From contig UQFQ01000002.1 of assembly GCA_900540395.1 (NCBI GenBank), forward strand, positions 6,684 through 70,683: 64,000 nt of DNA, read 5' to 3'. The stretch comes from an uncultured Mollicutes bacterium (lineage in GTDB: Bacteria; Bacillota_I; Bacilli_A; RFN20; CAG-826). The position numbers were made by a program, and so were the translations under genes. Numbering within the stretch: the first letter of the stretch is position 1; the number at the start of each line of letters is the position of its first letter. The notes below the pieces were generated by a model that was given only the letters and a program-made list of their open reading frames with translations, had not been told where the DNA came from and ran no database searches. This document shows positions 1,371-21,377 of this stretch, piece after piece.

Positions 1371-1747
1371 AATATTTAACTAAAGAGCAAATTATTTACC
1401 TTCAATAACAGCTTATGCAAGAATTTGGCGGCATAGGAGGAATTCGAAATGAAAATCTTTTGGAATCTGCTATTGCTTCGCCATTTCAAACATTTTCATC
1501 GAAAGAATTTTATCCTACTATAGAAGAAAAGGCTGCACGTCTTGAATACGGACTAGTTTCCAATCATTGTTTTTTTGACGGAAACAAAAGAATTGGTGCG
1601 CATGCTATGCTTGTCTTTTTAGTATTAAATGATATTCAACTTGATTTTACGCAGGAAGAGTTGATTCGGATTTTTCTAGACTTCGCTTCCAGTAATTTTG
1701 ACTATAGCACTCTTCTGGTTTGGATTAGAAGTCACGAGAGAAAATAG
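1367..1747 (+). pseudogene. doc: Doc (Fic-fold death-on-curing) toxin interrupted by an in-frame TAA at 1406-1408; the longest intact ORF is 1415-1747
   Basis: ATG 1367 is in the same frame as ORF 1415. Translation gives MKYLTKEQIIYLQ*QLMQEFGGIGGIRNENLLESAIASPFQ. The Doc/Fic motif HCFFDGNKRIG (HxFxDGNKR) is intact. Confidence 0.75.
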
Positions 1748-1823
1748 TAAGTTAAAATCATCAAATTGACTTGCGAATTTTTATTTTAAAAAATTAAATA
1801 TTACCCTAAGTGTTTTATTGAAA

Positions 1824-1870
1824 TATCACCCATTTTTTATAATAATAGTAATAGAAATATGTGGGTGATA
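1824..1870. promoter_or_regulatory. 9-bp inverted repeat TATCACCCA / TGGGTGATA bracketing a TATAAT box upstream of the AlbA_2-type gene
   Basis: TATCACCCA is at 1824-1832 and its exact reverse complement TGGGTGATA is at 1862-1870. TTGAAA lies at 1818-1823 and TATAAT at 1838-1843. Confidence 0.45.
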
Positions 1871-1872
1871 AA

Positions 1873-3279
1873 ATGTTGAAAATTAAAGAGATTATCGAAG
1901 AATGCATATCGTATGAAAACGAAAGAGAATGGTTTGAATTTAAAGAAAATTGGTTTGAAAAAGATCAAATAGGAGAATATATCTCCTCGCTTTCTAATAG
2001 TGCCGCCATTTTAGGAAGGGACTTTGCTTATATAATATGGGGAATAAATAATGAAAGTCATGAAATTGTAGGCACAACAATAAATTATGAAATTGAGGTT
2101 AATAATGAACCTCTTAAGCATTATTTAGCAAGGAATTTAAATCCTAGTATTAACTTTTATTTTTTAGAGACACGAATGAGCAACAAAAGAGTTGTGGTGT
2201 TAGTTATTCCAAGTGCTAAAATTGTACCAACAGCTTATAAAGATATTAGATATATCAGGATAGGTTCAAGTAAAGAAAAAATAAGAAAATATCCAGAAAG
2301 AGAAGCTTATTTATTTTCTGCTTTAACTTTTGGCATTCCTACGATTAATAATAAAGAAAGCGAATATCAAGACTTAGAATTTAACCAATTGAAGACATAT
2401 TATGCCTCCAAAAATATAACTTTATATAATTCTAGCTATCTTAAAAATCTTCATCTTTTAACTAAAGATGGTAAATTTAACATTATGGCTCAACTTTTAT
2501 CAGATAATTCTCATGTCCCAATTCGAGTTGCAATTTTTGATGGCAAAACTAAGGCTTCAAAAATGTATTCGGTTAAAGAATTTGGATATAAATGTTTACT
2601 ATACTCATTAAATGATGTTTTAAATTATGGTGAAGTTATGAATATTCCTCAAGCTGATGAAGAGGGGAGAGTAATGGAACGTAATGAAGTGATGCTATTT
2701 GATTTTGATTGTTTTAGAGAAGCGATTATCAATGCGTTTTTACATAACGAATGGGTTAATTTAAATGAACCGATGATAACTTTTTATTCTGATAGAATTG
2801 AAATTCTATCTAGAGGATCGCTACCACCATTACAAACTTTAAATGGCTTTTATGAAGGACATTCAGTACCTGTAAACGATAAATTATCTGAGTTATTTAT
2901 GCAGTTACATATCAGCGAAAAAACCGGTCGAGGTATACCTACTATTACTAATAAATATGGTAAAGAATCAATTAAAGTTAGTGAAAACAACATTATAGTT
3001 ACTATTCCATTTAACAGAATTAACGATGTGGGTGATAAAGTGGGTGATAAAGTGGGTGATAAAGTGGGTGATAAATTAAATTCAGCGTGGCTTAATTTCT
3101 CTCAGATTAAGGTTTTGGCAGAAATTAGGAATAATCCAAATATAACCAAACCGCAATTAATGGTTAAGTGCAATCTAGGTAAAACGTCTATCGATAATAT
3201 AATTAAAATTTTAAAAAATAAAGGTTATATCAAAAGAGTTGGAGCGAATAAAAACGGCTATTGGGAGGTCCTAAAATAA
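1873..3279 (+). CDS. Schlafen/AlbA_2-domain, HATPase_c_4-like putative transcriptional regulator with C-terminal winged HTH ('RecG-like' annotation class)
   Basis: The N-terminus ...ENEREWFEFKENW... fits AlbA_2. The C-terminus KPQLMVKCNLGKTSIDNIIKILKNKGYIKRVGANKNGYWEVL fits a wHTH. ATG 1873 is preferred over the track's GTG 1861 because GGTGA sits 4 nt upstream of it. A paralogue lies at 47811-49246. Confidence 0.7.
   Translation: MLKIKEIIEECISYENEREWFEFKENWFEKDQIGEYISSLSNSAAILGRDFAYIIWGINNESHEIVGTTINYEIEVNNEPLKHYLARNLNPSINFYFLETRMSNKRVVVLVIPSAKIVPTAYKDIRYIRIGSSKEKIRKYPEREAYLFSALTFGIPTINNKESEYQDLEFNQLKTYYASKNITLYNSSYLKNLHLLTKDGKFNIMAQLLSDNSHVPIRVAIFDGKTKASKMYSVKEFGYKCLLYSLNDVLNYGEVMNIPQADEEGRVMERNEVMLFDFDCFREAIINAFLHNEWVNLNEPMITFYSDRIEILSRGSLPPLQTLNGFYEGHSVPVNDKLSELFMQLHISEKTGRGIPTITNKYGKESIKVSENNIIVTIPFNRINDVGDKVGDKVGDKVGDKLNSAWLNFSQIKVLAEIRNNPNITKPQLMVKCNLGKTSIDNIIKILKNKGYIKRVGANKNGYWEVLK
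3028..3075 (+). repeat. In-frame perfect tandem repeat, 4 x GTGGGTGATAAA, encoding (VGDK)4
   Basis: Read directly: four identical 12-mers at 3028, 3040, 3052 and 3064. The same 12-mer also occurs at 1861-1872. Confidence 0.95.
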
Positions 3280-3824
3280 TGGCAAGCGAAAACATCTTTA
3301 ATAAGGATGATATAATTTTGATCAATGATATTACTTATAAAATTATTAAATTAATTGGTCATGGAAAAGGTGGCTATTCGTATTTAGCCACTGATGGAAA
3401 AACCAAAGTAGTAATTAAGAAAATTCATCATGAACCATGTTCTTATTATAACTTTGGCGATAAGATTCAATCTGAAATAATTGACTATAATACTTTATTT
3501 AATATAGGTATTAGAATTCCTAAGATGATTGATTATGACCTAAATAAAGAAATTATCGTTAAAGAATACATAAAAGGTGATGTAATATCGGATTTAATTA
3601 AGGAAAAGAAAGATATTTCTAAGTATATTAATCAGTTAAGAGAATTTTTACCTATTTTATATAACTTAAATATTAATATTGATTATTATCCGACTAACTT
3701 TGTTGTTAACTCTATCAATGATTTGATTTATTACATAGATTATGAGTGTAACACTTATGATAGCAAGCGGGATTTTGATAATTGGGGAATAAAATATTGG
3801 AATGGTGAAGAAGCCATAAATTAA
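3279..3824 (+). CDS. Minimal protein-kinase-like fold protein (RIO/Kdo/Bud32-like size, ~181 aa)
   Basis: It has a Gly-rich loop GHGKGGYSY, a VVIKK lysine, a catalytic-loop-like DYYPTNFVV and a YYIDYE motif. GGGAGG lies at 3263-3268. ATG 3279 overlaps the upstream TAA (TAATG). Confidence 0.55.
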   Translation: MASENIFNKDDIILINDITYKIIKLIGHGKGGYSYLATDGKTKVVIKKIHHEPCSYYNFGDKIQSEIIDYNTLFNIGIRIPKMIDYDLNKEIIVKEYIKGDVISDLIKEKKDISKYINQLREFLPILYNLNINIDYYPTNFVVNSINDLIYYIDYECNTYDSKRDFDNWGIKYWNGEEAIN

Positions 3825-4164
3825 GATGTTTTCGATACTAGTTTATGATTAGCAGGAGGTTCTTCATCCTTGCCTTGTAGTGCTGAAAGTATCAAAATTT
3901 ACTAGTTCTCATTTTTGTACGATATATCTAATACAAATTTAAAAATTAACTTAAACTTACTATATTCAGCTTTGTTCTTGTTGGAGATTAACTTCTCTAA
4001 TAGGTATGGGTATTTTTTGATGATGGAATATATGTTAGATTCAATTAAATATAGAAGGGAATAAGCCGTTAATTGATTTAAACTGCGCAATTTTTACGAA
4101 AACAGAGAAATTGCGCAGTATATCGCTAGTGAAATAAAAGGTATTTCTAAATATTCGAAAATGA

Positions 4165-4374
4165 TATAAATCAATAGTAAATGGACCAACTTATGTTGGT
4201 GTTCAATCATTATCTGCTAGTGCAGTTGTAATTAGAATTATTGCCGAATGTAATGAAACAATGCGCTATCAAGTGCAACGTGACATTAATCGAGAAATTA
4301 AAATCATCTTTGATCAAAATAACATCTTAATTCCTTATCCTCAAATTGTTGTACACGATGCAAAGAATAAATAG
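4165..4374 (+). pseudogene. C-terminal remnant of an MscS-family mechanosensitive channel
   Basis: My own translation gives ...NGPTYVGVQSLSASAVVIRIIAECNETMRYQVQRDINREIKIIFDQNNILIPYPQIVVHDAKNK*. This is the typical MscS C-terminal beta domain (..IPFPQ..). It is preceded by a stop and a frame change, and there is no N-terminal TM part. Confidence 0.6.
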
Positions 4375-4605
4375 CCAGAGAACTAAATGGAGACGGTTTT
4401 AAATTATTCATTTTGTAGCTAGGTCAGTTGCAACGAGCCATCTTCAAAGAATATTTAAGTGATAAGCCGTATTTTTTTGTCAATTTTACATTTTTTACGC
4501 CGTATAAAGTGTAAAAATAACACTTTTTACGGCTTATCGTTAAATTCTCAGTTTTATATGAGCTGAAATTAATGAAAGAAGAGCGAATTAGTTATTAGCA
4601 GAAAT

Positions 4606-5052
4606 GTGTTTAAAGTTGATTCGGTAGGTGGATATCTTTGTTTAGATTTATATGCAAAATTAAGGAAAGCAAAAGCTTTAATGTTATTTTATTCAGTAGT
4701 AACTAATAAGAATTTTGAAGCAAAAGAAATATTTAAAGACACACCGGTGCGGAATAGTCAATTAAATAAAAAGATGTGGAAAAGATTTTTAAAAAATAAA
4801 GAAGTAGATGATATTTTAGATTTAGACTTCTCTAATATTCCAAAAACATATATTGAAATATGCGAAAACGATTGTTTAAAAGATGAAGGTTTAGCTTTAG
4901 CCGATAAATTTAAAGCTGAACACCACATTATTAAAAAAGCCATGCATGGATTTGATAGTGTGGAGTCTTCTTACTTAACAAAAAAGCACTTAATAAGAGA
5001 AATTCTTTTATTCATAAGGTTATATCAGAAAATTAAAAGCTTTATAGATTAG
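4606..5052 (+). pseudogene. 5'-truncated alpha/beta-hydrolase (fold-3 / HSL-type esterase) fragment
   Basis: The frame opens only about 10 codons before the nucleophile elbow (KVDSVGGYL, compare GDSAGG). The C-terminal ENDCLKDEG and HGF triad motifs are present. The N-terminal oxyanion-hole half is missing. Confidence 0.5.
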
Positions 5053-5210
5053 TACACTTTTGTTAATTTGCTTTTATAAATTATAAAAATATAACCGATA
5101 ACACATAATTTAGTTAATTTGGTCACATTTATATAAAAATATTACCGATTGTATAGATTCCTTTGATTATTGTCTGCTTAATTGAGAAAATATGTATGAA
5201 AGGTAATATC

Positions 5211-5408
5211 ATGAATAAAATAGGTCAATTTGTTAAAGAAAAAAGAAAAGAAAATCATTTGAAACAAGAAGATTTAGCTTTATATGCTGGTGTTAGTACG
5301 AAATTTATTAGTCAATTAGAAAATGGAAAAGAAACACTTAAATTAGATAAGATAAATCAAGTTTTATCTATTTTTGATTATGAATTATCGCCTACAAAAA
5401 AGGATTAA
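5211..5408 (+). CDS. XRE-family HTH protein, HipB-like antitoxin/repressor
   Basis: MNKIGQFVKEKRKENHLKQEDLALYAGVSTKFISQLENGKE is a canonical HTH_3. It is the first gene of a tightly packed three-gene unit. The start is uncertain: in-frame candidates are 5163, 5196 and 5211. Confidence 0.75.
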   Translation: MNKIGQFVKEKRKENHLKQEDLALYAGVSTKFISQLENGKETLKLDKINQVLSIFDYELSPTKKD

Positions 5409-5411
5409 AGC

Positions 5412-5738
5412 ATGAAAAAAGCTAAAGTCTTTTATAATGATATTTTATGTGGTTATTTGACTGAAAATGATGATGGCTATATTTTTTACTACGTCGATGA
5501 GTATTTAAAAAAGAGCAATAGTAAAGCTATAAGTTTAACGTTGCCTCTTAAAGATGAACCATATCATTCAATGGAACTTTTTCCTTTTTTTGATGGCCTT
5601 ATACCTGAAGGCTATCTTTTTAACTTAGCAGTAAAAATATATAACATTAATCCGTTAAATAGATTTGAAGTTTTGCTTAAAACTTGTGCTGATGCAATTG
5701 GATGTGTTTCCTTAAAAGAGGATTTAGGTAATGAATAA
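5412..5738 (+). CDS. Stand-alone HipA N-terminal (couple_hipA) domain protein, HipS-like
   Basis: KVFYNDILCGYLTENDDGYIFYYVDEYL...FPFFDGLIPEGY matches the HipA N-subdomain pattern. It starts 4 nt after the HTH gene and overlaps the kinase gene by 8 nt. Confidence 0.75.
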   Translation: MKKAKVFYNDILCGYLTENDDGYIFYYVDEYLKKSNSKAISLTLPLKDEPYHSMELFPFFDGLIPEGYLFNLAVKIYNINPLNRFEVLLKTCADAIGCVSLKEDLGNE

Positions 5739-6681
5739 TCATAGGTGCTTATTTTGCGGAAGAAAATTAAACTCTGATTTAGAAGATAGTTATCATCGGC
5801 ATCTTTTTTGTATTAAAAAATTCTTTAATGTTAGTGCTTTTCCAGACACCTTACTTTTAGAAAATAATTTAGAAATTCTAGCTATTGATGAATTAAGAAA
5901 TCACTTATCTATTACAGGCGTTCAAAAGAAAATTTCTTGTAGCGTTAAAAGAGATAAGAAAACCAAAAAATTGTTTTTTGATACTGATAATTCTGAATTT
6001 ATTATTAAAACACCTGATTATGATATTCCAGATATTACCGAAAATGAACATTTTATAATGCTGTTGGCAAATGATATAGGCCTCGAAACTGTAGAAAATG
6101 GTCTTATTAAAACTAAAAATAATGGATATTTATATATTACAAAAAGAATTGATCGAGTGAGTGGAAAGAAGTTACCAATGGAAGATTTTTGTCAACTATC
6201 TTACAAGCTTACTGAATATAAATATCAAGGTTCTTATGAAAAATGTGTTAAAGAGATTATTGATAAATATTCTTCGAGAAAGCAATTAGATAAAATTCGC
6301 TTTTTTAACGTAATTTATTTTTCTTATGTTGTTGGAAACACTGATATGCATTTGAAGAATTTTTCTCTTTATGATGATGGAAGTGGCTTTCATTTAGCGC
6401 CTTTTTATGATCTTGTCTCATCGTATTTACTAGTCGGACAAGACGAGTTTGCTTTATCTTTAAATGGAAAAAGAAAGAAATTTACTAAAAATGATTTTAT
6501 AAAATTTGGTGAAAATATTGGTCTATCAAAAGAGTTAAGCATGAAAATTATAAAGTCTTTAAATGCTAAGATTGATTATGGCTTTAAAACATTGCTTCCT
6601 ACTTCTTTGATGAGTGAAAAACTTAATAAAAAGATGGAAGAATTAGTCAAAGAAAGATTAACAATTTTACATGCGGAGTAA
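5731..6681 (+). CDS. HipA-family Ser/Thr kinase core (HipT-like) with N-terminal Cys/His motif
   Basis: Motifs present are ITGVQKKIS (P-loop-like), GNTDMHLKNFSL (catalytic DxHxKN) and APFYDLVSS (Mg-binding D). The N-terminus CLFCGRKLNSD..HRHLFC is typical of Gram-positive HipA proteins. Confidence 0.8.
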   Translation: MNNHRCLFCGRKLNSDLEDSYHRHLFCIKKFFNVSAFPDTLLLENNLEILAIDELRNHLSITGVQKKISCSVKRDKKTKKLFFDTDNSEFIIKTPDYDIPDITENEHFIMLLANDIGLETVENGLIKTKNNGYLYITKRIDRVSGKKLPMEDFCQLSYKLTEYKYQGSYEKCVKEIIDKYSSRKQLDKIRFFNVIYFSYVVGNTDMHLKNFSLYDDGSGFHLAPFYDLVSSYLLVGQDEFALSLNGKRKKFTKNDFIKFGENIGLSKELSMKIIKSLNAKIDYGFKTLLPTSLMSEKLNKKMEELVKERLTILHAE

Positions 6682-6937
6682 GTAACACAATATTATGTTT
6701 AAATGAAGAAATATCTATAAATTTGACTCCTATAAATTAATAGAGCTATCTTCTTGATTAAGTTTGCTAGATCCAAAGCGGATAACTACTAGGAGGAAAT
6801 TTTGTAAATTATTATATAGCAATAAAAAATTAGCTTTTGCTGAGTTTTTTCCTAATTTGTTGTCTTTTATTGATATTTCTATTTGCTTATTTTATTAATA
6901 AATAAGCCATTTAAATAGAAGATTTATAATAGAATAT

Positions 6938-7022
6938 GTCCAAATCATATAATAAAAGAAAGCCAAATCGTATAATACTTTGCGTCCAAATTATATAATG
7001 ATTTTGGTCCAAATCGTTAAAT
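6938..7022 (+). repeat. 4 tandem 23-bp units with core (G/A)(T/G)CCAAAT(C/T)(A/G)T(A/T)AAT upstream of the AAA ATPase gene
   Basis: The cores start at 6938, 6961, 6984 and 7007, an exact 23-bp period. They read GTCCAAATCATATAAT, AGCCAAATCGTATAAT, GTCCAAATTATATAAT and GTCCAAATCGTTAAAT. Confidence 0.9.
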
Positions 7023-7085
7023 TTAATTGTTAATTGAATAGCTAAACATTATACTTATATTAAAGAGATTGAAGGATTTGATTTC

Positions 7086-8357
7086 ATGATTTATAAAAAA
7101 AGAATCGCTGATAGTATTTTGTCTAGGATGTTAGAAGGAAAAGGAGCAGTTTTGATTGAAGGACCTAAATGGTGTGGAAAAACCACGACGGCAGAAAAAC
7201 ACGCTTCAAGTGTTTTATATGCTGACGATCCTAGAAGAAAAGCTCAGAATTTAGCTATGGCTGATTTAAACCCAGAAATTATTTTAAGAGGTGCGAAACC
7301 TAGATTAATAGATGAACGGCAAATCATGCCAAAGATTTGGGATTCAATTCGTTTTGAAATCGATCATAGTGGCGAATTAGGACAATTTATACTCACTGGA
7401 TCTGCTGTTCCTTTTGAAACCAAAGATATAACTCACAGTGGTGTAGGTAGATTTGCTTTTCTTACAATGCGAACTATGTCACTATTTGAATCTGGAGAAT
7501 CAACTGGAGATGTTAGTTTAAAAGAACTATTTGATAGCAAAGAAAATATTTATGGTTTTTCGAATGTTTCACTAGAAAGATTAGCTTTTATTACTTGTAG
7601 AGGTGGCTGGCCTCAAGCGATTGGTATGCGAGATGAGATAGCTCTTGACCAAGCTAAATACTACTATGAAGCGGTTGTTAGATCTGATATAAATCGAGCC
7701 GATAATTCTCAAAAGAATGTTGATAAAGTTAGAATGCTAATGAAATCCTATGCAAGAAATCAAGGGAGCCAAGCTTCAAAAGAAGTTTTAGCTAGTGATT
7801 GTTTGCCAAACGAGGAAAAAGCAGTTTCTTGCTTAACTATCACATCTTATCTAGACGCATTATCTAAAATTTTTGTTATTGAGGAAATGACAGCACGGAA
7901 TCCTAATTTAAGATCAAAAACAGCTATTCGAACATCAAATACACGTTATTATAGTGACCCTTCTATAGCTGCAGCAGCTTTGGGAATAGGACCTAATGAT
8001 TTAATAAATGACTTAAATACCTTTGGACTATTATTTGAAACATTATGTATCCGAGATTTAAGAGTTTATGCTAACGCTTTAGACGGTGATGTGTATCATT
8101 ATAGAGATAAATCAGGCTTAGAATGTGATGCGGTTATACATTTAAGAAATGGTAAATATGGCCTGATAGAAATTAAGCTTGGTGGAGAAAGACTAATAGA
8201 AGAAGGCGTAAAAAATCTTAAATTACTAGAGGGAAAAATTGATACGCAGAAAATGAATAAACCATCATTTTTAATGGTCTTAACTGGAGTAGGTGATTAT
8301 GCCTATCGTCGTAAAGATGGCGTCTATGTTGTTCCAATTGGCTCATTAAAAGATTAA
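7086..8357 (+). CDS. AAA-family ATPase with C-terminal DUF4143-type (PD-(D/E)xK-like) domain
   Basis: It has Walker A GPKWCGKTTTA and a C-terminal ...ECDAVIHLRNGKYGLIEIKLG typical of the AAA_14/DUF4143 family. By eye it is visibly more G+C-rich than its surroundings. Confidence 0.75.
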   Translation: MIYKKRIADSILSRMLEGKGAVLIEGPKWCGKTTTAEKHASSVLYADDPRRKAQNLAMADLNPEIILRGAKPRLIDERQIMPKIWDSIRFEIDHSGELGQFILTGSAVPFETKDITHSGVGRFAFLTMRTMSLFESGESTGDVSLKELFDSKENIYGFSNVSLERLAFITCRGGWPQAIGMRDEIALDQAKYYYEAVVRSDINRADNSQKNVDKVRMLMKSYARNQGSQASKEVLASDCLPNEEKAVSCLTITSYLDALSKIFVIEEMTARNPNLRSKTAIRTSNTRYYSDPSIAAAALGIGPNDLINDLNTFGLLFETLCIRDLRVYANALDGDVYHYRDKSGLECDAVIHLRNGKYGLIEIKLGGERLIEEGVKNLKLLEGKIDTQKMNKPSFLMVLTGVGDYAYRRKDGVYVVPIGSLKD

Positions 8358-13495: not shown

Positions 13496-14875
13496 TTAAC
13501 GATAAATATCGTCAGAATTTATTAATATTAAATCTTTGTTTTCTTTTAATTTTTCATCAAATCCATTTAAGGAAGCAAATCCGTATTTATAGACATTAAA
13601 AGGTAAACCTTTCCATTGATTGATTTCTTCATTAATGTCGTTTTCATTTAATGGACGACTAAAAAATTTACACTCAATAGGAATAAAACCTTTAGCTGTT
13701 TCTAAAACTAAATCAAATTCTCTATTGATATATTCTTTTCTTTGCTTTGCATTATAAATTAGACGACCCGCATTAAAAAATAGTGGTAATTCAACTGAAT
13801 TTTTTCTTATGGCATATTCTTTAATTATTTCTTCAAACTTTCTAGGTAAGTATTGCTTTAAGAATTTTTCTTTTACAACTTTTTCGTAAAATAAGTGTGA
13901 ATTCATTAATTGTCTTGTGCTTTGATGTTTAAAGACAAAACTATAATAGAAATCTAAAAGGTTGTTTTTAATATAGTAAATTGGTTTCTTATTAAACTTA
14001 TCATTAACCATATAGGATTTTCCAATAATACCCATTTCCTCTAGCTTGGCTAAATATCTAGAAATGTTATCTTTCGATTTATCGCCAAGTAAATCGTTTA
14101 ATTCTTTAAATTTAGTCTTGCCATTTGCTATTAATTCTAAAATCGCGTTTACTTTTTCTTCTTTTTGAATTTCACTTGCAATTACATTTATGGCTTCTTT
14201 TTCAAAAAAAGAATCGTTTTCTAAAAATCGTGTGATTAAATTTTCTTCAAAAGGAACGGAATAATCTATATTTAATATATTAAAAGCAGTACCACCAAAA
14301 GTTGCATAGTATTTGATTTTATCAATAGTTGGCAAAGTTGGATAAAACCTAGAAGAATCAAAATAATTGAATTCTTTTAACAAAATAATCTCGTTAAATC
14401 TTCCATATAATGGAGCTTTTATATCTACAATCCTTTTCATTATATCAACATAAGAACCGCATAAAATAAGAGTTAACTTAGCGTCTTTTGAGTGAAATTC
14501 GATAGCTTTTTGAAGAGAAGAGTCGATGAGATCATCGTCTTGTTTTAAAAAAGAGTACTCGTCGATAAATAAAATGAAAGGATGAATTTTGCTATATTCA
14601 AATAATGATGAGAAAAAATCATAATAGTTTTCAGCCTTGAAGCCAATTATATTCATGAATTTAGACGCCTCGCTATTAAAATCAGTTAGATTAATCTGCG
14701 AGGTTGTTTTTCTTGCCAAAAGAGATAAACAAGGTTTTTTACACTCTCTTATTGCCTGGTTAATTAATTCTGTCTTGCCGACTCTTCTACGACCATAAAC
14801 TAATACAGCTTTAAATGAGTCTAATTGAAATGTGCTATTTATTCTTTTTAATTCATTTTCTCTACCTATAAACAT
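13496..14875 (-). CDS. AAA ATPase of the archaeal-ATPase/DUF234 type
   Basis: It has Walker A YGRRRVGKTELI, Walker B ILFIDEYSF, and a C-terminal REFDLVLETAKGFIPIECKF nuclease-like DUF234 signature. Confidence 0.75.
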   Translation of the reverse strand: MFIGRENELKRINSTFQLDSFKAVLVYGRRRVGKTELINQAIRECKKPCLSLLARKTTSQINLTDFNSEASKFMNIIGFKAENYYDFFSSLFEYSKIHPFILFIDEYSFLKQDDDLIDSSLQKAIEFHSKDAKLTLILCGSYVDIMKRIVDIKAPLYGRFNEIILLKEFNYFDSSRFYPTLPTIDKIKYYATFGGTAFNILNIDYSVPFEENLITRFLENDSFFEKEAINVIASEIQKEEKVNAILELIANGKTKFKELNDLLGDKSKDNISRYLAKLEEMGIIGKSYMVNDKFNKKPIYYIKNNLLDFYYSFVFKHQSTRQLMNSHLFYEKVVKEKFLKQYLPRKFEEIIKEYAIRKNSVELPLFFNAGRLIYNAKQRKEYINREFDLVLETAKGFIPIECKFFSRPLNENDINEEINQWKGLPFNVYKYGFASLNGFDEKLKENKDLILINSDDIYR

Positions 14876-14948: not shown

Positions 14949-15233
14949 TTATATTTCTAATTTAGCTATATAGTTATACTCATCATCTTTCTTTAAGAAT
15001 CCAAGCATATAAATTGGTAAATAAGTTATTTCATTTTTAACTTCCAGATTATTAGTACTTAAAACATAAGGAGTAGTTAAGTTAGCTGAATAAGCTGATA
15101 CCAATAATTTATTTAGCGAAGTATGTTTTTTATAATCACCTCCGTTTTTAACTTCAAGAGGAATTATTTTATTGTTTTTCTCGATTAAAAAAAATGATTT
15201 CTTTGATATTTTTGCTTCGACATCTATTTTCAT
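14949..15233 (-). pseudogene. 3' remnant (DUF4143-like C-terminal domain only) of another AAA ATPase gene
   Basis: The 94-aa ORF contains ...IIPLEVKNGGDYKKHTSLNKL..., which matches the C-terminal DUF4143 pattern. No Walker-motif part lies upstream. Confidence 0.5.
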
Positions 15234-15435
15234 ATTAAAAGACCAAGGAGTTTTGCAAATGACAGCAACTGAAATTGCCCCTTTTTACTAGGAAAAACGG
15301 GGCATTTTGCCCCGTTATTCTAAATATTTCGGGGCAGTTATTGTGTTTTGCAGTTACTACGTTTAAAGAAGCTTTTAAAAAAGTCTGTACAACTTTAGAA
15401 GTTCTAAGTTTGTATCAGACTTGTCATATAAATAT

Positions 15436-15512
15436 TGGCTGCCCCAGTTGGACTCGAACCAACACGGACCATGTTTCAGAGACATGTGACTTTACCATTT
15501 GTCTATGGGGCA
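15436..15512 (-). tRNA. tRNA-Gln (anticodon CUG)
   Basis: The reverse complement folds as a cloverleaf. The acceptor is TGCCCCA/TGGGGCA, the anticodon stem CATGT/ACATG with loop CTCTGAA (U33-CUG-A37), and the T arm GTTGG-TTCGAGT-CCAAC. The discriminator is G and CCA is encoded. Confidence 0.9.
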
Positions 15513-16257: not shown

Positions 16258-17205
16258 ATGAAAATTAAAGAAATTTATTCTAATTTTAAAAAGGAAGATA
16301 AGCTATTTAAGATAACTACAATCTGCTCGTTATCTATTAATTTAGTAATTGGTTTAGGTAAGTGGATCTTAGCTATTTTTAGTGGAGTTGTTTTCTTTGT
16401 AAGTGGCGTTGTAAATATTTTAATGGGACTAGCAAAACTTGTTTGTTACATTGGTTTAATGAATAGTGATATAGATTTTAAAAAGCGCAATTTGATTGTT
16501 TCAATTTTAGTTTTTGCTAGTGGCTTAGAATATTTCATTTATATGCTTAATGTTTACTTAGGCAATTTCAATTTGAGTAGTTATGAAACATCAATTGCTT
16601 TAATTATTGCTTTAGTTTCTTTTATTGAAATTGGTGTAGCTATAAGCGGATTAATTCGCTTAAAAGGACGTGGTCACTCTTTTAGAAACATCAAACTTAT
16701 TAATTTTGTTTTAGCACTTGAAGCTTTAGTTTTAACTGAAACGGCTATTCTTTCTTTTACTAGAAGTGATACTTTTGAAGTTTCATCATCTTTATTTGGC
16801 TTTATAGCCGGAATATTTGTAATGGTTTTATCAATATTTATGGTTTTTTCTCCATATATTACTATTGCTAATCAAGAAAAGAATGACTTTATATTAGTTA
16901 ATAAAGATAAAAACAATTTAGAAAAAGAAGGAGAACTCACTCTTTCTAAATCATTTATATATGGAGACTATGTTTATAAATATAAGTTAATTAATGAAGA
17001 AGAAGTGAGTGGAGAAATCACTAAAAAGAGTGGATTTTGGAAAAAAACACATATTCTTATTAAAATTCTTTTAATTATATTAAGCGAGATTTTAATCTTT
17101 GTTTGGCTTATTGGTCGCTTTATTTATTTTTTAAGATGTTCAACTTTAATTAAAAAGTTAAACAAGATTATGGAAGAAAACGGATTTAAGAAAGATAAGA
17201 ATTGA
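16258..17205 (+). CDS. Polytopic membrane protein, unknown function
   Basis: This 315-aa ORF has at least 6 hydrophobic segments. I recognise no family motif. Confidence 0.5.
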   Translation: MKIKEIYSNFKKEDKLFKITTICSLSINLVIGLGKWILAIFSGVVFFVSGVVNILMGLAKLVCYIGLMNSDIDFKKRNLIVSILVFASGLEYFIYMLNVYLGNFNLSSYETSIALIIALVSFIEIGVAISGLIRLKGRGHSFRNIKLINFVLALEALVLTETAILSFTRSDTFEVSSSLFGFIAGIFVMVLSIFMVFSPYITIANQEKNDFILVNKDKNNLEKEGELTLSKSFIYGDYVYKYKLINEEEVSGEITKKSGFWKKTHILIKILLIILSEILIFVWLIGRFIYFLRCSTLIKKLNKIMEENGFKKDKN

Positions 17206-17458
17206 TTATTTAAGAAACTAACTTAATAGAATAATTTTAGTGCGATAGAAGTCAGAGAAGATAAAAGTGCTTTTATTACTTTAGTGGTTTTATAACCCTA
17301 CTAAGGTTTATGAATATTGTGTATTATCTATAACTTCTAGTAGAAGATTTTTAAAGAGGAACTGAATTAGGCGTTAAAGGTTTGTTAGCTGTTATTTTTT
17401 AATAAAAAAGCAAGTATAGAACAATAAAAGCAAACACTCAATTTTAATTATTTGTAAA

Positions 17459-17918
17459 GTAACATGTAACTACGTTACATTGTTAGTAAATTCAATATTA
17501 AAAGCGATTAATATTTAATGGCTAAAAAACCTGATTCATTTCTTATTATGGAGAATCCATTGTTAAACAATATAGATGAAGAGACTTTAACTATTTTGAA
17601 AGTAACATGTAACTACGTTACATTGTTAGTATTTTGATATTAAAAGCATCTATTTTAAGCTCTAAAGATTTATTCCTTTGTTCAGTTGAGGAAATAACTG
17701 CCGAAACAACCCAAAGAATTGTATCTTTAATCGCTAAATTTAAAGTAACATGTAACTACGTTACATTGTTAGTAATTCAGCGTTAAAAATGGATGTTTTT
17801 TAAACGTTGAAACTTGACTTATTATTTTAAGTTAAAAATCCATTTCAAAACAAATATAAATAAATGCTAATTTTTACTTGTTATTTTAGGTAACATGTAA
17901 CTACGTTACATTGTTAGT
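17459..17918. repeat. Array of four identical 29-nt bulged palindromes (GTAACATGTAACTACGTTACATTGTTAGT) at a 143/143/145-bp period
   Basis: The cores lie at 17459-17487, 17602-17630, 17745-17773 and 17890-17918. About 15 further nt on the right flank are semi-conserved. The intervening ~115 nt are dissimilar by eye. Confidence 0.9.
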
Positions 17919-18316
17919 TTTTCAATATACTTTTTTAAGTATGAAATTACTAGATTATCAGCTGGAAGTAGATCAAGCTTTTTAACATCATCTAAATCGT
18001 TAAAACTAATCCATTTATATGATTCATGTTCTTTAAAAATGATGTGTTCATCTTCTAAAGAAACACAAAAAACATTCATCTTTAGATAAAAAGTAGTGTA
18101 GTCATATTCGACTTTGCACAGGAAGTTATCAACTTTTATTGAAGCATCTAATTCTTCTTTAATTTCTCTTTTAATGGCATCTTCTTTACTTTCGTCTTTT
18201 TCGATTTTACCACCCGGAAATTCCCATTTATCTTTATATTCTCCATAACCTCTTTGAGTTAATAAAATCTTTTTATCTTTAATTATTACTGCAGCACAAA
18301 CTTCAATTTCTTTCAT
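17906..18316 (-). CDS. NUDIX hydrolase (MutT-like)
   Basis: It has the NUDIX box GGKIEKDESKEDAIKREIKEELD. The last 4 codons and the stop lie inside repeat copy 4. Confidence 0.85.
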   Translation of the reverse strand: MKEIEVCAAVIIKDKKILLTQRGYGEYKDKWEFPGGKIEKDESKEDAIKREIKEELDASIKVDNFLCKVEYDYTTFYLKMNVFCVSLEDEHIIFKEHESYKWISFNDLDDVKKLDLLPADNLVISYLKKYIEKLTM

Positions 18317-18361
18317 AGCTTTTACAGTCTATCACACTAGCTTTTAGTTAAAAGATCAACT

Positions 18362-19030
18362 CTATTTAAGTGTCTTTTCAATGAATTCAGGAGTAATATC
18401 TTCTTTTTTGAATGAGTTATTTAAAGAGTAACAATGAATATATTCATTGAATGGATATTTCTTTGATAGTTCATCATATATTATTTTAGTTTGTTTCTTT
18501 TTGAGGCTTTTAAATCCAGATTGAGAGTAGATTGTTAAAAGAGTTTTGATGAATTCTTTATTCATTGAATGCATTAAGTAGTGGTCATAACGCGTTAAAA
18601 AGAATTTAAGTGGTTCGTCTTTTTTGTATTTATCTTTTAAGTATGTTTTACTTGCCGCAATCATATCAGCTACATACTCTAAAGAGTATTTAAAAGGAAT
18701 TTTAGTTAATATAAAGTCACCTTTAAATTCACTAATCCAATATTCATAGTGATGTTTATTATGATTGGTATGATGAGCAAAAATAGAAGAATATAAACCT
18801 TCGTTACGTCTTTCATTTACAATTGGTGAATAGTTTCCGCTAAAGTATTTAACACTAGGAAGAAATTCATTTCTAGAAAACTTAGATAAATCATGAACCA
18901 AGCCTAGATGTAATATTCCTAACTTATATGAATGAATTAATACTAAGTTTTTATGCTTTATAACGACACGCAAATGTTTAAAGAAATTTTTCATATAAAC
19001 AATTGTAACCCATTTATCTTTATTGTTCAT
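18362..19030 (-). CDS. Hypothetical protein with His-rich motifs (HDLSKF, HHTNHNKHHYEYW)
   Basis: It is a 222-aa intact ORF with metal-binding-looking His clusters. I cannot assign a family with certainty. Confidence 0.45.
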   Translation of the reverse strand: MNNKDKWVTIVYMKNFFKHLRVVIKHKNLVLIHSYKLGILHLGLVHDLSKFSRNEFLPSVKYFSGNYSPIVNERRNEGLYSSIFAHHTNHNKHHYEYWISEFKGDFILTKIPFKYSLEYVADMIAASKTYLKDKYKKDEPLKFFLTRYDHYLMHSMNKEFIKTLLTIYSQSGFKSLKKKQTKIIYDELSKKYPFNEYIHCYSLNNSFKKEDITPEFIEKTLK

Positions 19031-19398
19031 AAAAAGATGGAACTAATTTAAAAATGTAAAGAGTGCTAAACTTAATTTAATTGAAAAAAATTATTAATAA
19101 GCAAAAGTGTTAATTTTTAAATCAACAGGTGTTGTTTTCAGCAATTCTGTCTTTTATTTGTCTAAATTTTTGCTATGACAAATATGACAATTGTTGAAGA
19201 AAGAAGATTTTTCAAAATATTTGCAAATCTAATACTTTTTAATTTTATTGAAAATTTTTTGAAATAAAAATTAAATTACTCAATTTTAAACACTATCTTT
19301 TTTGTTTTTTTATTCTTGGAGTCGTGTTGTTATTATTTTTTTGAACAAATAAAAAAATTTTTATTTCAAATTAAACAAATTAAAAGAGGGATTTAAGT

Positions 19399-20240
19399 AT
19401 GATGAAAAGAAAATTTTTAGCAGTAATTTTACCTATCATAGGTTGTGCAACTGTCGTTGGTAGTGGATTTAGTGCTTGGTATTTCGTGATACGGTTACAA
19501 CAGGCGATTCTGGCTCAACAGCTATTAATGTTGAAGTTACTGACGAAATTAAAGATGCATCAGGCACTCTTAGTGTAGATCCAACAGCTTCAACTATTAC
19601 GAATAAGTTTTTAATCTTAGATCAAGGCGGTCCTAAAAATGATAGTCTTGACTCAGGAATTATGTTTGGAGATGAAGGTGCTACCGAAACTACAGCAACT
19701 AGCGAAAATGCAGGAACTATCGTAAATAAATGGGATTTTACCGTTAAATACGAAGGAGATGGACTTACTCTTGGTGAACTTTATGATGCCGGGTTAAGAA
19801 TCAGAATTAATTTGACTATTGCAATTAAAGGTGATTTAGGAAGAAAATACATTACTTTCCAAGATCCAGTTCCAACAGTCAAAGTTACTCCATCAGGTTT
19901 GACTGGAACTGATGACCCAGTAACATTGACAGGCGAAAGCACTAGTCCTATTAGAAGTGCTAATTATATCATTACTGATGACCAAGTAAATCGTAGTGAA
20001 ACAACCGCCAGTTGGAGATTTGAACTTGGAGTAGATACTCTAAAGAAAGGAAACGATTATTCAAACGCTTTATTAAAATATCAACAACGTGTTTACGCTG
20101 ATAACACTTATAAAGGTGGTAAACCTGGTGATGAAGGCGAACCACTAACAATGAAAACTGATTTGATAAACGATGATGAAGATCCATCAAAAATTGTATT
20201 TTCAGTTATCGCTTACATTGAAGACGATACAACTAAATAA
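19399..20240 (+). pseudogene. TasA/camelysin-like secreted subunit with SipW-cognate signal peptide; 1-nt frameshift at about 19485/19486
   Basis: AAGAGGG precedes ATG 19399, which gives MMKRKFLAVILPIIGCATVVGSGFSAWYF. The frame then shifts by -1 into ORF 19476-20240 (..DTVTTGDSGSTAINVEVTDEIKDASGTLSVD). Restoring one G gives WYFGDTV. Compare TasA GGGTWAAFND...ASGTLDLS. Confidence 0.65.
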
Positions 20241-20258
20241 TTAATAAACAAACATTTC

Positions 20259-20294
20259 GTGTGGACTTACCTTTAAGATAAGTCCACACTTTTA
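20259..20294 (+). terminator. Strong hairpin plus T-tract between the TasA-like gene and the signal peptidase gene
   Basis: GTGTGGACTTA-cctttaaga-TAAGTCCACAC is followed by TTTT. Confidence 0.8.
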
Positions 20295-20318
20295 CAAAAC
20301 AAAAAGGGTATTAAATAA

Positions 20319-21377
20319 ATGAATGGCCAAGAAATACTAGGTAATGTTGCTTTTTATGTTTCAATTGCAGTTGTTATTGGCATGGCAATCATGTTTTCTA
20401 TACTTTTTGCTATTTATGGATACTATAAAATTAAACATATTAATTACGGACATGAAGATGCTCAATTAGAGAAAACTTTACGTAATAGATATAAAGAGAT
20501 TATAGAAAGAAATAGTGAAGAAGGACTTAAAACAAAAACAATTGTAGATAAAGACAAAGTAAATGAACCAGACTATGTTATGGTTCAAAATATGAGAAAC
20601 GTCAAAACATTTACTCTTGTTGGTGAAAAAGAAGTTGAAAAGCCACTCGAACCTAAAACTGTTTTAGAAGCAATATTTGAAGAGAAACGTAAGTCAAAGA
20701 AATGGAGAGTTGTCTCTAATGTTTTCTTTGCGATTTTTTATGTTCTTCTTCTAATCTTGCTTGGATTTTCAATAGCTTTTAAAGTTACAAATCAACAATT
20801 ATATTTTGGTAACTCTGGTCTTGTTGCAATTTACACTGGTTCAATGGAATCAGTGAATGACGAAAATGAATATATCAAAGAACAAGGTTTAGAAGCTGCT
20901 GAAAATCGAATCATGCAATATTCACTAATTGGTGTGGATAAAGTAACATCTCCAGACCAAATGGAGCTTTATAAGATTTATGGTTATCGTACTCCTGAAG
21001 GTAATTTAATTGTTCACCGTTTAATCAGAATTTACACAAATCCAGAAACAAATGTAACTTATTATACTTTTAGAGGCGATGCTAACTCTGATTCTTTATC
21101 TTTTGAACTTGTCTTAACCTTTGATGACATTGAATGTGTATATAATGGATTCCAGAACTTCGGACTTGGTGTCACAACAATTTACTTACAATCAAATATT
21201 GGTTTAATCGCAATTTTGGCTGCTTTCTTGTTCTTAATTACATATCAATCAACTGAACATTTTATTGAAGTCGCTTATGATAAACGTACTCAAGAAATTG
21301 CTAAAAAGATTGATGGAAAAGAATATATTTTAGATTTACGTAACAAGAAAATGAAAAAAGTGGAGGAGAAGATATGA
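20319..21377 (+). CDS. SipW-type (ER/archaeal-type, Ser-His) signal peptidase I with long N-terminal extension
   Basis: It has the catalytic boxes YTGSMES, IVHRLIRI and FRGDANSDS (compare SipW SGSMEP / HR / GDNN). There are three TM segments. It is 352 aa versus about 190 aa for B. subtilis SipW. Confidence 0.75.
   Translation: MNGQEILGNVAFYVSIAVVIGMAIMFSILFAIYGYYKIKHINYGHEDAQLEKTLRNRYKEIIERNSEEGLKTKTIVDKDKVNEPDYVMVQNMRNVKTFTLVGEKEVEKPLEPKTVLEAIFEEKRKSKKWRVVSNVFFAIFYVLLLILLGFSIAFKVTNQQLYFGNSGLVAIYTGSMESVNDENEYIKEQGLEAAENRIMQYSLIGVDKVTSPDQMELYKIYGYRTPEGNLIVHRLIRIYTNPETNVTYYTFRGDANSDSLSFELVLTFDDIECVYNGFQNFGLGVTTIYLQSNIGLIAILAAFLFLITYQSTEHFIEVAYDKRTQEIAKKIDGKEYILDLRNKKMKKVEEKI

Follow-up and report, generated by a model that had tools for sequence, protein, structure and literature searches.

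The locus described here is very probably (about 80% by our estimate) a set of four paralogous non-coding units of 143–145 bp, each consisting of a diverged 114–116-nt body and an invariant 29-nt imperfect palindrome, which arose by tandem duplication in place, was seeded at the 3′ end of a NUDIX gene and, as a single locus private to its species, fills a variable slot between convergent genes. It lies in a window of 64,000 nt, the whole stretch of DNA analysed, from an uncultured Mollicutes bacterium, and occupies a gap of ~700 bp with the NUDIX and DUF5662 genes on its right side. The same locus is present on three human-gut metagenome contigs (L005, L006 and L007) whose flanks are 91–97% identical to those of the window. 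Each of these contigs carries exactly four cores, at unchanged spacing and with the same three bodies; the comparison for gain or loss of units proposed in the earlier note thus returned four copies and the same bodies in all four assemblies. The features of the locus, in window coordinates, are as follows.

16258..17205, plus strand: convergent 315-aa ORF, the left border of the gap
17202..17906: lineage-specific 705-bp segment, without counterpart in the sister species G001
17345..17458: region left of copy 1, perhaps a fourth unit body, with weak likeness to s3
17459..17487, plus strand: core copy 1, 29-nt bulged palindrome, unchanged in 4/4 assemblies
17488..17601: unit body s1, 114 nt, paralogue of s2 and s3
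17518..17637, plus strand: 39-codon ATG ORF running into core 2, intact in 4/4 assemblies, judged non-coding
17602..17630, plus strand: core copy 2, plus-strand hairpin followed by GTATTTTGAT; A>G at position 4 in L007
17631..17744: unit body s2, 114 nt, paralogous to s1 and s3
17634–17786, plus strand: 50-codon TTG ORF reading through core 3 in the frame that the 39-codon ORF uses through core 2
17745..17773, plus strand: core copy 3, the most variable between assemblies; followed by CTTTAAATTT on the minus strand
17774..17889: unit body s3, 116 nt, paralogous to s1 and s2
17890..17918, plus strand: core copy 4, its right 12–14 nt forming the last NUDIX codons and stop; followed by GTTTTTCAAT on the plus strand
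17906..18316, minus strand: MutT-like NUDIX gene, ending ...YIEKLTM*, with its stop codon within core 4

The repeat that first drew attention to the locus, GTAACATGTAACTACGTTACATTGTTAGT, is a 29-nt bulged palindrome present in four copies without a single mismatch, all on the plus strand of the window and with start-to-start distances of 143, 143 and 145 bp. This description from the earlier note was confirmed, and none of 100 shuffled controls contained any match to the core, even with up to three mismatches allowed. The hairpin had been described as 12 bp long with one bulge; the bulge (one T) stands, but the fold has 11 base pairs, closed by a 3-nt loop. Its predicted RNA energy is −8.3 kcal/mol on the plus strand and −7.3 on the minus strand (z about −2), and its DNA energy −5.9 and −5.2, respectively. 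None of the 16 copies in the four assemblies departs from the inner palindrome ATGTAAC-N3-GTTACAT, and variation is found in the centre and the outer parts of the core.

The intervals between the cores, which had been taken as unrelated, turn out to be collinear and weakly homologous paralogues. Compared with dinucleotide shuffles, the spacer pairs reach z values of 5.4 (s1–s2), 4.5 (s1–s3) and 2.6 (s2–s3), and the scores of s1–s2 (23) and s1–s3 (24) exceed the maxima of 16–21 obtained with 300 random window segments. The likeness of s1 to s2 lies at the start of the body and that of s1 to s3 in its middle. Because the spacers are weakly but significantly homologous, we regard the array as an old tandem duplication. 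Identity falls in steps, from 100% in the core to 73–84% in a 55-nt family made up of the core and its flanks, and to 58–64% of aligned columns beyond. Tandem Repeats Finder reported no array at the locus, as fits units that are only 58–64% alike outside the core. The stretch at 17345–17458 resembles s3 with a z of 2.7 against shuffles and a score of 19, which the best of 300 random segments also reached. We also considered a further, degenerate fifth unit, or a ‘core 0’ to the left of copy 1; it is unsupported, as nothing further left is related.

The right end of the array is tied to the NUDIX gene. The minus-strand ORF at 17906–18316 does take its final codons and stop from copy 4, as had been noted, and the link between the array and this gene end proved to be real: the BLAST homology between the window and the closest species, G001, ends at 17201 and restarts at 17907, inside core 4, and a semi-global alignment places the right arm of core 4 on the last NUDIX codons of G001. 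It follows from these alignments, with G001 as the one informative species, that the right arm and thus the palindrome were built on ancestral gene sequence, and that 17202–17906 is lineage-specific. The ‘..LTM*’ endings at copies 1–3, read in the earlier note as degenerate versions of the same gene end, are a trivial consequence of the repeat; L-T-M-stop is encoded within the core, so these endings carry no extra information. G001 keeps both flanking genes of the gap and holds in the slot a 964-aa PLDc_2 + ResIII/helicase + DUF3427 gene (L061 1098–3992, G001:C34), which overlaps the end of the NUDIX gene by 9 nt. A tblastx search of the gap for remnants of this DUF3427 gene gave nothing significant, and the neighbouring genes in the window include no recombinase, cas or transposase gene.

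The array appears to be confined to this species. Within its own genome (1.62 Mb in 47 contigs), a search allowing up to three mismatches returned these four cores only, an nhmmer profile of the unit found nothing beyond the array, and the inner palindrome and the half-site pairs occur nowhere else. The core was not found in 60 relatives (0/60) or in 400 family genomes (0/400), and blastn of the array against 400 genomes of the order gave short AT-rich chance matches, none containing the core. The orthologous DUF5662 loci of 29 relatives hold no comparable repeat. Viral contigs contained neither the exact core nor a relaxed stem pattern, and among species-representative genomes the relaxed pattern yielded one single-copy match in a Prevotella MAG, which we take as chance. 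With the array and all three of its intervals as query (17400–17960), blastn found no match in phage records and one weak Borreliella match in plasmid records (81 bp, 76.5% identity, E 1e-3), also taken as chance. Complementarity of the spacers to their own genome was limited to chance 13–19-mers, and Rfam gave no match within the array at E ≤ 1. The earlier note had held that a core dispersed as a generic REP element would overturn its view; what we see is four copies at one locus and none in 400 family genomes.

A role of the array as an origin of replication was considered and rejected, as dnaA sits on another contig; there is no strand composition skew at the array, and avoidance of the core sub-palindromes as restriction sites is unremarkable (observed/expected 0.7–1.2). 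Repeats of another kind occur on contigs C6 (about 69.6 kb and 74.5–74.8 kb) and C36 (195–281) of the same genome, in sets of about four tandem 22–23-bp iteron-like repeats such as are found at plasmid and phage replication origins. Contigs C47 and C26 (L041, L042) encode two extra XerA-type tyrosine recombinases besides a XerC/XerD-like pair. In the window itself, positions 1415–8357 and 13496–14875 hold a toxin-antitoxin/defence-like cluster with a Fic/DOC fragment, a Schlafen AlbA_2 + HATPase_c_4 gene, a split HipA, an AAA_14/DUF4143 ATPase and an ATPase_2/DUF234 protein with an HTH.

Divergence was measured between the window and the three metagenome contigs, which are metagenome assemblies related to one another and therefore not independent comparisons. 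Counts of differences over compared positions are given below.

Array, non-coding differences: L005 14/458, L006 9/458, L007 9/458 (2.0–3.1%)
Flanking genes, 4-fold sites: L005 15/141, L006 34/358, L007 60/343
Flanking genes, third codon positions: L005 46/549, L006 105/1200, L007 165/1200
Fisher p, array against 4-fold sites: L005 0.001, L006 2e-6, L007 2.6e-15
Core changes: L005 1/116, L006 3/116, L007 3/116
Body changes: L005 13/344, L006 6/344, L007 6/344

Silent sites of the flanking genes differ by 8–17%, and the divergence of the array is 3–9 times below that of 4-fold sites and close to that of codon positions 1+2 (1.8–3.6%). An intergenic region used for comparison (19031–19475) differs by 7.8–11%. 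The pre-array part of the 705-bp segment differs by 4.1–5.0%, which is not significantly different from the array (p 0.06–0.21); given this similarity, a recent spread of the whole segment could mimic selection. Slow evolution is not a property of the core by itself: pooled over the assemblies, cores changed at 7 of 348 positions and bodies at 25 of 1032, which are like rates, and copy 1 was never altered. It is the whole array that is slow-evolving. The earlier argument from perfect core identity to constraint on the core was therefore half right, in that the array as a whole, and not the core alone, evolves slowly. The seven core changes, found in 12 copies, fall in the loop (3), next to the bulge (1) and at the outer pair 4–25 (3); none falls among the 13 inner-stem positions (P = 0.016 if changes were uniform).

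All 29 core positions, including the loop and the bulge, are identical across paralogues whose bodies have diverged by ~40%. Simple purifying selection cannot give both this identity among paralogues and a body-like rate of core change between relatives. Short-tract gene conversion is the likely cause of core identity, and a conversion tract centred on the core fits the stepwise fall in identity away from it; copying of the core would fit the identity of the paralogues as well. The earlier note had also foreseen that gapped alignment of the intervals might reduce the array to a decaying tandem duplication with an unconstrained core, and half of this has come about, namely the origin by tandem duplication.

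Other parts of the window also differ between the related assemblies. L006 and L007 carry ~1.5 kb of extra sequence at window positions 15220–15377, beside tRNA-Gln (15436–15512). This insert (L006 1134–2480) encodes an AAA_14/DUF4143 ATPase of 448 aa and includes a second, partial copy of window 15207–15366; at this place the window has only a 94-aa ORF. The spacer between the NUDIX and DUF5662 genes (18317–18361) is replaced in L006 and L007 (47–53% identity) and kept in L005 (89%). Two ORFs of 254 and 352 aa at 19476–21377 vary strongly; the former is 78–81% identical with indels, and in L007 24.6% of the third codon positions of the latter are changed.

The array is non-coding. The 39-codon ATG ORF at 17518–17637 exists and lacks a Shine-Dalgarno sequence, just as the earlier note had it, but its six variable sites fall at codon positions 2, 3, 3, 1, 1 and 1, with no third-position excess. 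The 50-codon ORF likewise has no third-position excess and is broken in L005 by a 1-nt frameshifting deletion. Since the array is non-coding, and its variable sites bear no coding signal, a nucleic-acid-level function of the kind suggested in that note is a reasonable class of explanation.

RNAalifold on 12 aligned units returned the core hairpin as the sole consensus structure, with compensatory changes at none of its 11 pairs, and positions predicted to be paired show no shortage of substitutions (16/27 and 17/27 on the two strands). The scan for promoter-like sites gave 6 where 10.2 were expected, which is no enrichment. A standard scan of 16900–18500 found no canonical terminator, and neither convergent gene has one in the gap. 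Under relaxed criteria, cores 2 and 4 pass on the plus strand and core 3 on the minus strand, at −6.6 kcal/mol; T-rich tails follow three of the eight core-strand combinations, roughly the level of chance, for which we estimate ~1.6 of 8. Terminators were found at 15 of 149 sampled gene ends in this genome, with a median of −10.9 kcal/mol and 3–4 GC pairs. The genome thus uses GC-containing terminators at other sites, and at −6.6 kcal/mol the hairpin alone stands at the weak end of its terminator range.

What the array does, if anything, can be proposed only tentatively. We lean towards a reading, possible rather than probable, in which the palindromes act as RNA hairpins that punctuate small or 3′-UTR transcripts of a constrained non-coding array. 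The array would be copied into RNA either as a 3′ region common to both convergent operons or in small transcripts from the array itself, the two not being exclusive; every palindrome would form a hairpin serving as a weak terminator or as a 3′-end-protecting or processing element; and the products would be ~140-nt sibling RNAs or 3′-UTR-derived RNAs, with the conserved ‘spacers’ as their bodies. We favour this reading because all parts of the unit evolve equally slowly, because both genes are without other terminators, and because there is precedent for repeated hairpins at such sites: hairpin or direct repeats interspersed in intergenic DNA and in 3′ UTRs are known from STAR (PMC3532100) and NIME (PMC1797815). 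Selection on structure only does not explain why loop, bulge and unpaired ends are identical in four paralogues, however, and the low divergence could reflect a recent species-wide spread of the 705-bp segment. Nearly as likely, and better at explaining full sequence identity, is an array of double-stranded protein-binding sites. The core would then be a composite operator of two direct and two inverted GTAAC-type half-sites with an odd centre, bound by a dimeric or tetrameric protein, and the four sites ~143 bp apart may support a looped or wrapped nucleoprotein structure or local promoter control. Full identity suits sequence-specific recognition more than a structure-only hairpin, as does an inner palindrome that is invariant in 16/16 copies while the centre and outer parts vary. 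Cores 1–3 each contain TACATT and are closely preceded by a −35-like hexamer; the scan flags copy 2 at 9/12, and copies 1 and 3 were read by eye. Yet neither the palindrome nor its half-site pairs recur elsewhere in the genome, which leaves no regulon; none of the adjacent genes is a DNA-binding one, promoter-like sites show no enrichment, and binding sites alone leave the core-like slow rate of the 114-nt bodies unexplained. A functionless leftover is the next candidate, somewhat doubtful in our judgement: a decaying tandem duplication in a slot of variable content, where short-tract gene conversion would keep the cores alike and recent spread, rather than selection, would account for the low divergence. 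Homologous bodies that are 58–64% alike, the stepwise fall in identity from the core, the like rates of change in cores and bodies (7/348 and 25/1032), the restriction of the array to one species and the low divergence of the pre-array part of the novel segment all agree with it. Perfect direct repeats of 29–33 bp should nevertheless favour the loss of units, yet the array keeps four copies in the same order in 4/4 assemblies; its divergence is 3–9 times below that of adjacent-gene 4-fold sites, and core changes avoid the inner stem (P = 0.016).

Recombination offers an unlikely explanation, in which the cores would be tyrosine recombinase sites (att- or Xer-like, or miniature attC-like hairpins) and the array a record of repeated integration at the NUDIX 3′ end. 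The junction of the segment does lie inside core 4, and the core rebuilds the NUDIX end, as happens at many integration sites; what the slot contains varies between species, the genome encodes four Xer-like recombinases at other loci, and the AAC...AAC...GTT...GTT boxes, with their one bulged base, look like a small attC as defined in PMC5027507. Set against this, the R-box consensus and an unpaired central spacer are lacking, no integron integrase was found in the genome, and no recombinase is near the array. The bodies are homologous and of equal length, which marks them as duplicates and not as independent cargo, and no other copy of the site came up in the genome, viral or family searches, the metagenomes giving the same four-copy array of close relatives only. 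Copy number is constant in 4/4 assemblies, and the GC skew has no switch at the array. More doubtful still is a Cas-independent, hairpin-punctuated RNA array, in which one precursor or several nested transcripts would be cleaved or would terminate at the hairpins and so yield sibling RNAs of ~140 nt whose bodies have diversified. Such an array would fill a defence-gene slot with RNA alone, and copying or conversion linked to its machinery would keep the hairpins identical. A CRISPR-like adaptive or guide array, with repeats copied at acquisition and 114-nt spacers processed to guides by an unrecognised effector, strikes us as very improbable. Its identical repeats and regular intervals would suit such a system, repeat copying would explain why cores are younger than bodies, and the slot holds a defence-like nuclease-helicase gene in the sister species, but a search for Cas1 in the genome (97.7% complete) found none, the neighbourhood lacks cas genes and the genome has no other CRISPR-type array; the intervals are mutually homologous, the same in four assemblies and far longer than known spacers, and have no phage match, only the weak Borreliella plasmid match and no meaningful match in their own genome. 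Just as improbable are tandem small-peptide genes, the units encoding short peptides that end in ...KVTCNYVTLLV. The 39-codon and 50-codon ORFs do cross cores 2 and 3 in the same frame, and the former is intact in 4/4 assemblies, but a Shine-Dalgarno sequence is lacking, neither ORF has a third-position excess, the second is frameshifted in L005, in unit 3 a stop codon immediately precedes core 4, and the 143-bp period is not a multiple of 3.

If the slow evolution of the array reflects selection, the locus would be a species-specific functional non-coding element of a small, AT-rich, uncultured-type gut bacterium, one that originated at the 3′ end of a housekeeping-type gene and takes up the slot where the sister species has a nuclease-helicase gene. 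If it is only a relic, it would be a useful example of a false positive for callers of CRISPR-like arrays.

Among known systems, CRISPR, REP/BIME, attC and dif each fail at least one of the defining features tested. With CRISPR arrays it shares identical 29-nt, partly palindromic repeats (4/4) and a regular interval length. CRISPR spacers are mutually unrelated and tens of nt long, whereas the intervals here measure 114–116 nt, are homologous to each other and are the same in 4/4 assemblies. Cas1 (PF01867) has no match in the genome (97.7% complete), the neighbouring genes match no cas family apart from a sub-threshold HTH-only match, and other CRISPR-type arrays are lacking in the genome. The earlier verdict that the array is not CRISPR holds on these grounds: no Cas1, homologous intervals and no turnover in four assemblies. 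The likeness to REP-type sites suggested at the same time does not: unlike REP and BIME elements, the core sits at one locus in four copies and is not dispersed, and the Y1 (RAYT) transposase PF01797 has no match in the genome. Xer/dif is a single terminus site, as opposed to four copies here, and the cumulative GC skew rises steadily across the window, with no switch at the array, so this is not a terminus dif site. The sibling small RNAs LhrC1–4 of Listeria are tandem homologous units of ~100–150 nt in one intergenic region, with invariant modules and diverged bodies, and LhrC-type RNAs have mapped promoters, terminators and targets. Our array resembles them as a set of homologous tandem units of sRNA size, but its promoter and terminator signals are at chance level.

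The likeness to attC sites, also raised in the earlier note, is not supported. Both form an imperfect hairpin in which AAC/GTT boxes pair and a base is extrahelical, and both occur in one orientation as near-identical sites between dissimilar intervals. The core, which has one bulged T and a 3-nt loop, is too short at 29 nt, lacks an unpaired central spacer and separates no cassette ORFs. The R boxes of integron attC sites are given as RYYYAAC / GTTRRRY (PMC5027507); AAGTAAC is wrong at 2 of 4 degenerate positions, and GTTAGTA and GTTAGTT at 1–2. Against the integron integrase model TIGR02249, the four tyrosine recombinases of the genome score 143.7, 117.7, 77.4 and 73.8 bits, below the cut-off of 265.

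Closest in architecture are STAR and the neisserial dRS3/RS arrays, with a likeness in layout only and no shared sequence. STAR of Staphylococcus is a 14-bp GC-rich, non-palindromic repeat found at many loci in arrays that expand and contract, with intergenic spacers of at least 40 bp that are locus-specific and conserved within lineages (PMC3532100). The shared architecture is a short direct repeat interspersed with recurring spacers of at least 40 bp; our core differs as a 29-nt AT-rich palindrome at a single locus, with four copies in 4/4 assemblies and no sequence relation. NIME of Neisseria consists of the 20-bp palindromic dRS3 regularly separating non-coding units of 50–150 bp beside variable genes; a role as recombinase site has been proposed, dRS3 is a phage integration target, and there are many arrays per genome, with repeat numbers that vary between strains (PMC1797815). 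The layout of a short palindrome between non-coding spacer units is common to both. The array studied here is a single private locus with a stable copy number and with no associated recombinase or phage found, and its core is unlike both the 14-bp STAR consensus and ATTCCC-N8-GGGAAT. It offers a small, clean case of the puzzle posed by STAR and NIME, in which the repeats stay identical and the pieces between them diverge.
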